The notes below the pieces were generated by a model, which was not told the DNA's origin, did not search any database, and was given only the letters and a program-made list of their open reading frames with translations. Below are positions 31,275-34,085 of a DNA stretch of 64,000 nt, piece after piece (within the stretch, counting starts at the first letter, position 1; every line of letters begins with the position of its first letter). Made by a program: the position numbers and the translations under genes. Origin of the DNA: an uncultured Chromatiaceae bacterium (GTDB lineage Bacteria; Pseudomonadota; Gammaproteobacteria; SZUA-140); NCBI GenBank assembly GCA_964605155.1, contig CAZSAK010000017.1:136-64135 (forward strand), in the 5' to 3' direction.

Positions 31275-31466
31275 CGAAAACCCACCCCATTTATTTCCGC
31301 AGACATGGCTTTAATAACGGCCAACTCCTGAAACCTGCCCCTGATGTGTAAAGCAGAACTTACAAAACACTTGAAAATCAAAGGATCTTTTGAACATCCC
31401 GACCCCAAGTAGTATAATAGACCTACCCTTCAATAATCATATCCGTAGGTATCAGTTGTAACAAAT

Positions 31467-34085
31467 ATGATCCGTCATGTTGAATCTGTGGCCTGCCACG
31501 CGTATCTTGGTATGTCCGGCATATCTCGCATGAGTGCGAATAAAAAAACAGCATCGCCACGCATACTCTCTGCATTAGTCGTGGGCGCCATATTCAGCGT
31601 CTGTGAACCCCTGTCTGCCGCCACCATTACAGTGGACAGTGATGTGGATGCACTTATCAGTGACGGAAATTGTACCCTGCGGGAGGCGATTATCTCATCC
31701 AATACGGATTCGCCGGTAGATGCCTGCACTCAAGGCAGTGGATCGGATGTGATTATATTACCTGCAGGGACGTATATCCTGACGATACCCGGAACGAACG
31801 AAAATGCATCAGCGGACGGGGACCTCGATGTAACCAGCAACCTGACTATCAGCGGTGAGGATGCAACCACTACGATAATCGATGGCAACGGCGCGATCAC
31901 CGGTGAACGCGCAATTACCATCGGATCTTCAGGAAACAGCAGCTTCTCCGTCACGATAAGTGATGTAACGATCAAGAATGGAGCAACCGCCACCATAGGT
32001 GGCGGCATATTAAATTACGGTAACACGACGCTTACGAACATAGTAGTAACAGGCAGCACAGCGACCCAAAATGGCGGTGGCATATACAACTTTTTGGGCA
32101 ACATGACGCTCACAAACGCCACCATATTACAAAATACTGCGGCAACCAACGGCGGCGGTGTTTATAACCTGTCAACGTTAACTATCATTGATAGTAATGT
32201 CAGCAATAATACAGCCACAACCGGATTTGGTGGCGGTATCGCAGCCTTAGGCAACAACTTTACGGTCACCGACAGCATGATTATGGATAATACCGCGGCA
32301 ATCTCTGGTGGCGGTATCCACGCTGCCTCGGGCGTAACCCATATAACCGGCTGCACGGTCAGTGGCAACACTGTAATCAATGGAAACGGTGGCGGTATCT
32401 ATAGCGATGGCGGTTTTGAATTCAATATAGCAGCCAGCACCATCAGTGGAAATTCAGCTCAGATAGGAGGGGGCGGTGTCAACATCGGCAGGGGTACTGC
32501 ACTGATCATCAATAGTATCATTAATGGAAATACATCTTTGGGCGACGGTGGCGGTATCAATAACAACGGGGCATTGACTGTGAATATGAGCGACATCAGT
32601 GAAAATACTGCTGTCAATCATGGCGGGGGCATCAGTAACGCAGCCAATATTGCAGCCAGGAGCACTACCATCAGTGGAAATACAGCTCAAGGTAACGGTG
32701 GCGGCATATGGAACAACAATGGCGGCGTGCAGATGAATAACGTAACCATTACCAACAATACTGCAGATAATGACGCTGACGATTCTGGTGACGGCGGCGG
32801 GTTGTACACGAATATCGGCCTGAACAACATCAGCAATACCCTCATCGCAGGAAATATCGACGGTAGCAGTAGTGCTGAAGTACCTGATTGCCTTGGCGAC
32901 ATCAATTCGCTCGGTAATAACATCGTTGGAGACGACACGGGATGTAATTTCACTAATAATACCGGAGATATCGTGGGTACTACAGGCAATCCTGTAAATC
33001 CGCTTCTGGGCCCGCTCGCCGACAATGGTGGCGACACCCGAACACATGAGTTGCTGGAAGAAAGCCCGGCGATTGACACTGGGAACGACGCGAGTTGTGA
33101 AGTCCAGGATCAACGTGGCATCGACCGTCCCCAGGACGGTAACAACGATAATGTTGCGATATGTGATATTGGCAGTTTTGAACTTCAGCTCAGTCCAAAT
33201 GTGGTTTATGTTGATCCTGTGAATCCGCCGGATGACCTGCAGATGCCGTTCGACAGGCGCGTGATCAATACTTTCCCTACGCTGGACCTGAGTGTAACGA
33301 ACAGTGGCAGACTCGATCTGTTAGTTCGGAGAATCGGTAGTTTTGAACGCCTGGAGCCACCGTTCTCCCTGGATGAAGACTGTACTACGGCTCCGATTCC
33401 CCCTTCCGGCAGCTGCGTTATTACTGTCCAGTTTTCAGTGGCGCAAGTAGGCCAGTTCTCCGACAGTTTTGATATCATTACCAATGATCCTGACGAGTCC
33501 ATCGTCGTCGTCGACGTCAGTGGCGAGGGAGTCCTTGCATTGAACAACACTCCCCCGTCGGCACCTGAACTGATTGCACCGGAGAACGGCGCGACTGGAC
33601 AGGATCCCGATAACGTTGATTTCCAGTGGACGCGCGCCGATGATCCCGACAACGACACGCTCACCTATTCGATATTGCTCTGCACAGACGCCACGCTGTT
33701 TATATGCCCAGACCCTCAACCGCTCCAGGGTCTTACGTCAAGCATTGATCAGGAATATCTCTATGCGGGCCTGGGGACATCCGGAATATTGTTTGGTCTT
33801 TTCGGTTTTACCAGCGGACGTATTCAACGCAGGACGCGCCTGGGATTGCTGATACTCGCCTCGCTGGCTGCCAGCCCGCTGCTGATTTCGTGCGATACGG
33901 GCCTCAAGGATGTCGATGTCTCCTCGGCACTCAACTCAACCCCGTTGGGTGTTTCCTTCGGTAATTTTACGCCCGGCACGACCTATTATTGGAGGATTGA
34001 TGTGGCTGACGGGAAGGGTGGTACCGCCTCGAGCAATGTGCGAAATTTCAAAACAGCGGACGCCCCGCCGGCAGACTCCCAATAA
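31467..34085 (+). CDS. Secreted CSLREA / GGGI beta-helix / choice-of-anchor Q surface protein with Ig-like and interrupted Fn3-like domains
   Basis: Signal peptide, CTLREA, many N.A..GGGI repeats, LGPLADNGG...SPAID.G...DQRG...CDIGSFE, ASH/Ig-like domain, Fn3-like C-terminus; start uncertain. Confidence 0.85.
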   Translation: MIRHVESVACHAYLGMSGISRMSANKKTASPRILSALVVGAIFSVCEPLSAATITVDSDVDALISDGNCTLREAIISSNTDSPVDACTQGSGSDVIILPAGTYILTIPGTNENASADGDLDVTSNLTISGEDATTTIIDGNGAITGERAITIGSSGNSSFSVTISDVTIKNGATATIGGGILNYGNTTLTNIVVTGSTATQNGGGIYNFLGNMTLTNATILQNTAATNGGGVYNLSTLTIIDSNVSNNTATTGFGGGIAALGNNFTVTDSMIMDNTAAISGGGIHAASGVTHITGCTVSGNTVINGNGGGIYSDGGFEFNIAASTISGNSAQIGGGGVNIGRGTALIINSIINGNTSLGDGGGINNNGALTVNMSDISENTAVNHGGGISNAANIAARSTTISGNTAQGNGGGIWNNNGGVQMNNVTITNNTADNDADDSGDGGGLYTNIGLNNISNTLIAGNIDGSSSAEVPDCLGDINSLGNNIVGDDTGCNFTNNTGDIVGTTGNPVNPLLGPLADNGGDTRTHELLEESPAIDTGNDASCEVQDQRGIDRPQDGNNDNVAICDIGSFELQLSPNVVYVDPVNPPDDLQMPFDRRVINTFPTLDLSVTNSGRLDLLVRRIGSFERLEPPFSLDEDCTTAPIPPSGSCVITVQFSVAQVGQFSDSFDIITNDPDESIVVVDVSGEGVLALNNTPPSAPELIAPENGATGQDPDNVDFQWTRADDPDNDTLTYSILLCTDATLFICPDPQPLQGLTSSIDQEYLYAGLGTSGILFGLFGFTSGRIQRRTRLGLLILASLAASPLLISCDTGLKDVDVSSALNSTPLGVSFGNFTPGTTYYWRIDVADGKGGTASSNVRNFKTADAPPADSQ

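Follow-up and report, generated by a model that had tools for sequence, protein, structure and literature searches.

We describe here a gene from an uncultured Chromatiaceae bacterium whose protein product ends in an Fn3 domain split by a membrane hairpin with an internal lipobox; the gene lies in a 64,000-nucleotide stretch of contig CAZSAK010000017.1 (assembly GCA_964605155.1), hereafter the window. The open reading frame (ORF) occupies window positions 31467..34085 on the + strand, as do all its features given below, and encodes an 872-aa protein of the choice-of-anchor Q / CSLREA type that is predicted to be exported. Its putative N-terminal export signal (residues 1–51, 31467..31619), recognized from sequence, combines basic KK..R with the hydrophobic segment ILSALVVGAIFSV and is likely cut after LSA51; residues 22–51 read MSANKKTASPRILSALVVGAIFSVCEPLSA, and the orthologue P0002 shows the same N-terminal layout. 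The passenger matches the choice_anch_Q model NF041518 at residues 511–574 (77.6 bits against a cut-off of 25) and a HYDIN/VesB-like Ig domain at residues 607–682 (35.5 bits against 25.5), while the CSLREA N-terminal motif at residues 54–78 scores 17.8 bits, which is under its cut-off.

At the C-terminus the first half of the Fn3 domain, a first transmembrane helix (TM1), a basic cluster, a second transmembrane helix (TM2) that ends in a lipobox, and the second half of the Fn3 domain follow one another in one frame. The first half (residues 696–755, 33552..33731, sequence PPSAPELIAPENGATGQDPDNVDFQWTRADDPDNDTLTYSILLC...C) is modeled by AlphaFold2 as strands A, B, and C with a loop from Cys739 to Cys747. 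TM1 (residues 764–781, 33756..33809, YLYAGLGTSGILFGLFGF) is Gly-rich, starts YAGLG, and from its sequence would be a stop-transfer helix; the basic cluster RIQRRTR (residues 785–791, 33819..33839) would form a cytoplasmic loop and serve as n-region of an internal signal. TM2 (residues 792–808, 33840..33890, LGLLILASLAASPLLIS) resembles the h-region of a signal peptide and ends in L-I-S; the Cys lies 17 residues beyond the last Arg, the commonest spacing in the family (47 of 101 modules, see below). The putative lipobox Cys809 (codon tgc, 33891..33893) is followed by Asp810 and by 63 residues in all, containing FTPGTTYYWRIDVADGKGG...VRNFKT. Within them the second half of the Fn3 domain (residues 826–866, 33942..34064) is modeled by AlphaFold2 as strands E, F, and G, and bears the motif TTYYW (TTYYWRIDV...VRNFKT). 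This layout, its coordinates, and the 64 aa that start at Cys809 had all been given in the original prediction, and the reading of the ORF bears them out. Just ahead of the insertion lie Cys739 and Cys747 (C.D..F.xC, 33681-33707), which probably form a disulfide closing the loop into TM1.

A lipobox of the pattern [LVI][ASTVI][GAS]C behind a basic n-region and a hydrophobic h-region marks a signal peptidase II (SPII) substrate. The tail matches this pattern with RIQRRTR as n-region, the 13-residue h-region LGLLILASLAASP, and L-I-S-C809 as lipobox, and a flexible stretch after the Cys adds to the likeness to the classical lipoprotein signal peptides handled by Lgt, LspA, and Lnt. It differs in location. 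Classical signals are N-terminal, and the usual assumption is that bacteria lipidate lipoproteins only at the Cys exposed when such a signal is removed, whereas here the signal begins at residue 785 of 872 and runs to residue 809, behind a transmembrane helix. Because it is internal, cleavage would sever the protein rather than just remove a leader.

The two flanks of the hairpin are predicted to belong together. We ran AlphaFold2 on residues 690–872 (the piece, with its own numbering) with a 27-row alignment, A1; both flanks have a predicted local distance difference test (pLDDT) of 92–97, while the model as a whole has a mean pLDDT of 74.4 and a predicted TM-score (pTM) of 0.61. Strands of the first half are modeled at piece residues 13–15, 20–23, 28–32, and 44–50 (pLDDT 92–97), those of the second at 138–142, 150–158, 164–166, and 170–174 (pLDDT 94–96), and the sole helix of the model at 102–112. 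Foldseek alone gave no match at E ≤ 0.001. On re-alignment, residues 4..177 of the model superpose on 7y8h_A (90 residues aligned to the 92-residue chain) and on 9kvu (94 of 94 aligned), each with a root-mean-square deviation of 2.2 and Z of 9.8, so that the predicted model follows the seven-strand Fn3 sandwich. By sequence, Pfam PF00041 scores 12.8 bits against a gathering score of 25, over residues 829–859 only. Since both halves superpose on single Fn3 domains, we read the model as one predicted Fn3 whose loop after strand C carries the hairpin, in agreement with the original prediction that the two halves fold as one domain.

In Fn3 topology the first piece would be A, B, and C and the tail E, F, and G, and each sheet needs strands from both pieces; the domain would thus persist after cleavage as a two-chain sandwich. 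The proposal that the tail completes the Fn3 in trans fared less clearly than that of a single fold. Predicted as two chains, piece residues 1–66 and 120–183 score 0.43, as compared to 0.02 for the best of three controls; at least 83% of contacts agree between runs and the pLDDT of the partner is at least 64. Of 80 solved complexes, 58 pass the mark, as do 2 of 110 mismatched pairs; these counts are only approximate here, as our own alignment was supplied. The band at 0.60 or under, in which our score falls, holds 7 of the 80 solved complexes along with both passing mismatches. The prediction lends weak support to assembly of the Fn3 from separate pieces, and the pass may reflect likeness to solved Fn3 structures.

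Chains of IGF1R and the insulin receptor (IR) are among the fold matches of the model. In the insulin receptor the insert lies inside FnIII-2, and the chains of both receptors are also disulfide-linked. The likeness to our case is an Fn3 domain broken by a long cleaved insert, such that the mature domain consists of two chains; a passage of PMC7039211 describes a furin site in the insert domain that separates the alpha and beta chains. The receptors differ in being eukaryotic, in having a disordered loop rather than a membrane hairpin as insert, and in involving no lipid.

To what extent the tail recurs was addressed with phmmer, using residues 690–872 against 1.84 billion representatives, which returned 2262 hits at E ≤ 0.001. 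The best 150 of these were examined, and 62 of them cover the whole query in one to three stretches and end at their own C-terminus, in proteins of 165–1434 aa; the best 150 hits alone thus include no fewer than 62 clusters (50% identity) that carry the module. The Cys is present in all 62 and a broad lipobox in 61, the exception being IQLSC. The other 88 are multi-Fn3 proteins without the hairpin. Two of these 88, P0024 and P0115, were considered as internal copies of the module and rejected, as in each the gap is bridged by an alignment to a pair of ordinary tandem Fn3 domains. A word-indexed search with the same residues found P0002, an 872-aa orthologue with 72% identity over the tail that keeps the hairpin and LLISC; P0004, an unrelated 630-aa protein with 29% identity and the same order of parts; and P0003, an ordinary tandem-Fn3 protein without the insert. 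Conservation of the lipobox Cys on unrelated passengers, which the original prediction had proposed as a check, is seen in the 62 full-span hits, in P0004, and in 38 of the 39 hairpin loci from named genomes described next.

In a scan of named-species genomes with alignment A2, which is smaller than A1, we obtained 79 loci and checked the 54 with broad query coverage. The full module is present in 38 of the 54. A hairpin occurs in 39 loci, and the sole one without the Cys is L059:1843-5544 (a Bryobacteraceae metagenome-assembled genome, MAG), where the last Fn3 of a 1233-aa protein is split by a TM-KKK-TM arrangement with neither Cys nor lipobox. Two module-type genes, L049:5929-6408 and L054:4969-6336, are frameshifted within the first Fn3 half or the hairpin and may be pseudogenes or assembly errors; L049 has 59% identity to the query in its best segment. 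Other checked loci, including Flavobacteriaceae with full query coverage, were rejected as tandem Fn3 domains. Carriers are mostly Nitrospirota/Thermodesulfovibrionia and Desulfobacterota MAGs, with a minority from Gammaproteobacteria, Dongiaceae, Spirochaetaceae, and one Bacteroidetes MAG. Several genomes have more than one copy: the module is multi-copy in Nitrospirota and Geobacteraceae, as compared to the single copy in the genome under study (G000).

Closer to home, a search of 41 genomes gave full-length matches in two, G000 itself and a family relative, G010. The latter has a 1134-aa frame with the hairpin ...RHRRQTLWSAGLILAASLISAC-SGGGGG..., the frame ending ...YAGLGIPGAGLLGALMVLSIVPRHRRQTLWSAGLILAASLISAC-SGGGGG...TTYYWKV. 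Another genome of the same family has a 2927-aa frame in which only the second Fn3 half is matched (L003, G007:C26:29734-29868, - strand; query 137-181, E 2.8e-4); this is probably an ordinary Fn3 repeat protein.

The Cys column is invariant across the 27 rows of alignment A1, which were chosen from a list that required the Cys; in piece numbering P8, P16, W32, D37, and C58 are invariant as well, and C50 is nearly so. We parsed 101 unique modules to describe the constraints around the Cys. The parser demanded the Cys, and its frequency is for this reason taken only from the 62 full-span hits and the 39 loci. Position -3 is L, F, V, or I in 89 of the 101 (L 55, F 20, V 8, I 6); position -2 is more varied (V 28, I 20, A 12, S 12, T 11); and position -1 is S, A, or G in 100 (S 64, A 32, G 4, Q 1). 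The residue after the Cys is mostly G (58) or S (24), with D in 6; it is also Asp in P0002 and Glu in P0007. Over the eight residues after the Cys, 62% are G or S. The basic cluster holds 3–5 K/R in 98 modules, the last basic residue lies 12–20 residues from the Cys (mode 17), and the tail after the Cys runs to 42–76 residues. The two helices are unalike in Gly content, 24% in TM1 and 5% in TM2; TM1 has at least three Gly in 95 modules, contains AG.G in 58, and starts with [YF]AG.G in 48. The constraints at positions -1 and -3, the short h-region, and the G/S residues after the Cys are those of SPII substrates and not of a generic transmembrane helix. As judged by this conservation of sequence, the hairpin-lipobox tail is not a product of chance.

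The design has been noticed before. NCBIfam release 20.0 already has a model for this hairpin-lipobox tail in Acidobacteriota, NF058595.1 or ‘invert_tail’ (‘lipo-invert putative C-terminal anchoring domain’); to call the tail a candidate new mechanism, as the original prediction did, was thus an overstatement. The model matches 23 of the 27 A1 proteins (best E 2.5e-8), all under its 37-bit cut-off. Our protein scores 14.1 bits (E 0.044, residues 690–872), likewise short of the cut-off, and a six-frame search of its genome gives 14.8 bits for it; other matches in that genome, at up to 18.4 bits, were rejected as noise resembling transmembrane or lipoprotein segments. None of 37 module proteins scanned reaches the cut-off (best 34.1 bits), nor does any match in 10 further module genomes (best 31.7 bits). 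The genomes of L012, L013, and L015 (G041–G043) have 8, 4, and 4 NF058595 matches below the cut-off. Of 81 Acidobacteriota genomes, 6 contain true members, with scores as high as 98 bits and as many as 14 matches in one genome; the tails of these members (L109–L113) consist of an Ig-like domain, TM, RRR, TM, lipobox Cys, a GGGS linker, and two strands ending ...TVTVQ.

Both groups share a transmembrane helix, an Arg/Lys cluster, a signal-peptide-like helix, a lipobox Cys, a G/S linker, and a short C-terminal beta tail. They differ in the host domain: ours is an Fn3 with DPDxD and TTYYW that is split after strand C, whereas that of the acidobacterial members is Ig-like and has the split ahead of its final two strands. 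When the two hairpin sets are compared profile to profile with hhalign, the probability is 95.4% (E 1.8e-8) over 48 columns with 13% identity; the flanking sandwich halves of the Fn3 branch and NF058595 do not align in that comparison. As the aligned hairpin is compositionally biased, common descent of the cassette is not established by this result. With a score under the cut-off and a different host domain, our protein is not an NF058595 member; it has the same design and belongs to an Fn3-based branch. The tail-anchor design, already named by database curators, is therefore not wholly new, and the Fn3 branch is beyond the reach of the curated model. A literature search on an internal lipobox or lipo-invert returned no paper, and one on ‘choice-of-anchor’ nothing relevant among the papers listed; in the papers listed by a broader search, the term ‘C-terminal lipobox’ appears to mean the end of an ordinary signal peptide.

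On balance, we lean toward the view that the tail is a C-terminal membrane and lipid anchor of the lipo-invert design built on Fn3, and that it is processed by Lgt, LspA, and Lnt, a view drawn from the sequence patterns above. The N-terminal signal would take the ~700-aa passenger, with its CSLREA/choice-of-anchor Q beta-helix and Ig-like domain, through Sec until TM1 (764–781) halts transfer and leaves RIQRRTR in the cytoplasm. TM2 (792–808) would then re-insert with its N-terminus in and its C-terminus out as an internal lipoprotein signal, made up of the n-region, h-region, and LISC lipobox described earlier. Lgt would add diacylglycerol to Cys809, LspA would cut between Ser808 and Cys809, and Lnt would acylate the new amino group. 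The resulting 64-aa lipopeptide would complete the Fn3 with strands E, F, and G, residues 696–755 providing A, B, and C, and hairpin and lipid would together keep the passenger on the outer face of the inner membrane. In Escherichia coli, an Asp after the lipobox Cys causes inner-membrane retention (the +2 rule); if that rule applies here, Asp810 would favor the same location.

The genome encodes what this scheme would need, with Lgt (287.6 bits), LspA (134.6 bits), Lnt (332.7 bits), and LolA (175.2 bits) all over their cut-offs. No neighboring gene is conserved across the 39 loci, where only module proteins recur and other families appear in at most three, among them a Crp/Fnr regulator (3 of 39) and a pair of exosortase and EpsI (2 of 39). 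The absence of a recurring neighbor fits processing by housekeeping enzymes.

Several points weigh against this reading. We know of no case in which Lgt and LspA accept a signal that lies behind a transmembrane helix. The N-terminal product of the LspA cut would stay anchored through the hairpin, which makes the lipid appear superfluous, and a step may be missing; and the Cys-less hairpin of L059 apparently means that a hairpin alone can serve. In the AlphaFold2 model the hairpin (piece residues 65–132) has a pLDDT of <50. The linker after the Cys in our protein, DTGLKDVDV..., is not G/S-rich, unlike that of most of the family, and the NF058595 score of the protein and the pass of the two-chain prediction are both weak.

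Some of the same points would favor a helical hairpin that is never cleaved, in which TM1 and TM2 tether the Fn3 and its passenger to the inner membrane and the Cys is either lipidated without a cut or conserved for some other reason. L059 retains its hairpin without the Cys, a hairpin in a loop is topologically enough as an anchor, and cleavage adds little that is obvious, since the N-terminal product would still be held after LspA. A plain transmembrane helix, however, would not impose constraints of the lipobox type, whereas the Cys is found in 62 of 62 hits and 38 of 39 loci, 100 of 101 modules have S, A, or G at position -1, and the Cys sits between a short h-region and a G/S linker. We regard an uncleaved hairpin as unlikely, and as an alternative that deserves to be kept in view.

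A further alternative is dual processing, in which a rhomboid, rhombosortase, or exosortase type of enzyme cuts at TM1 and LspA cuts at Cys809, so that the hairpin is excised and the passenger rides on lipidated Fn3 strands. GlyGly-CTERM and PEP-CTERM signals consist of a motif, then a transmembrane segment, then a basic tail, and TM1 with its basic cluster has the layout of such C-terminal sorting signals (GlyGly-CTERM/rhombosortase, PEP-CTERM/exosortase, LPXTG/sortase); its high Gly content relative to TM2 and the [YF]AG.G start point in the same direction. Our passenger, moreover, belongs to the ‘choice-of-anchor’ families, which carry such signals. The difference is that TM1 lies 91 residues before the C-terminal end and that no dedicated enzyme consistently co-occurs. 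The GlyGly-CTERM model TIGR03501 gives no match to our protein at E ≤ 1. The genome does have a rhombosortase (G000:C13:12206-12661, - strand; 163.7 bits, cut-off 84) as well as three genes of the rhomboid family, but a rhombosortase is over the cut-off in only two of five other module genomes, whose completeness was not established. Its borderline GlyGly-CTERM candidate, at 15.5 bits exactly at the cut-off, lies elsewhere, at the end of a 934-aa frame (G000:C37:4352-4408, - strand).

Two Nitrospirota loci, L014:6710-8178 and L026:8379-9838 (both - strand), encode XrtA-like exosortases (208.8 and 221.5 bits, cut-off 208), and in both the pair with EpsI lies 0.2–2.5 kb from the module gene; exosortase is also present in all five other module genomes. 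Neither G000 (100% complete) nor G010 (96% complete) yielded one, and as a neighbor exosortase occurs in only those 2 of 39 loci. Excision of the whole hairpin, as the original prediction had proposed, would solve the redundancy of the lipid, yet it lacks support from the distribution of these enzymes, and we judge a dual cut of this kind to be rather improbable. We give similarly little credence to a specific form of it in which the hairpin is a disposable assembly device: LspA would cut at Cys809 and a rhomboid-type protease would cut TM1 near [YF]AG.G, the hairpin would be discarded, and the two-chain Fn3, with a triacylated strand donor of ~60 aa, would carry the ~700-aa passenger non-covalently and, in most members (those with Gly or Ser after the Cys), via Lol to the outer membrane. 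If true, this would be C-terminal lipid anchoring by fold complementation, performed by housekeeping enzymes only.

Finally, the junction of TM and RRR with a lipoprotein-like signal reads as though one gene stopped there and the next began, and L049 and L054 are frameshifted, but a frameshift or assembly error that fuses a gene with a C-terminal anchor to a small downstream lipoprotein gene is very improbable, given that the same continuous frame recurs in >100 independent sequences, that the flanks are predicted as one Fn3, and that a word-matching search of limited sensitivity found no stand-alone 48–154-aa homologue of residues 785–872.

The gene stands alone, with FolD upstream and a Dps-like ferritin downstream on the opposite strand. 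A candidate sigma-70-like promoter (31390..31418, + strand; TTGAAC-17-TATAAT, 10/12) lies 49 nt upstream of the ATG; it is a match to consensus only, one of 7 such sites in the region where 4.7 are expected.

The hairpin-lipobox tail is thus a real and widespread design and, judging by its sequence, probably functions as a lipid anchor of the tail. The module spans several diderm phyla and places a canonical lipobox ~55 residues before the end of the protein, within a domain whose folding needs both sides of the cut. It escapes annotation pipelines and predictors of signal peptides, and the curated hidden Markov model does not reach the Fn3 branch. If Lgt and LspA do process the module, it would provide a general means of anchoring large exported proteins by a lipid at their tails without a dedicated sortase, would extend the substrate rules of two enzymes that are antibiotic targets, and would be a natural split-domain tether.

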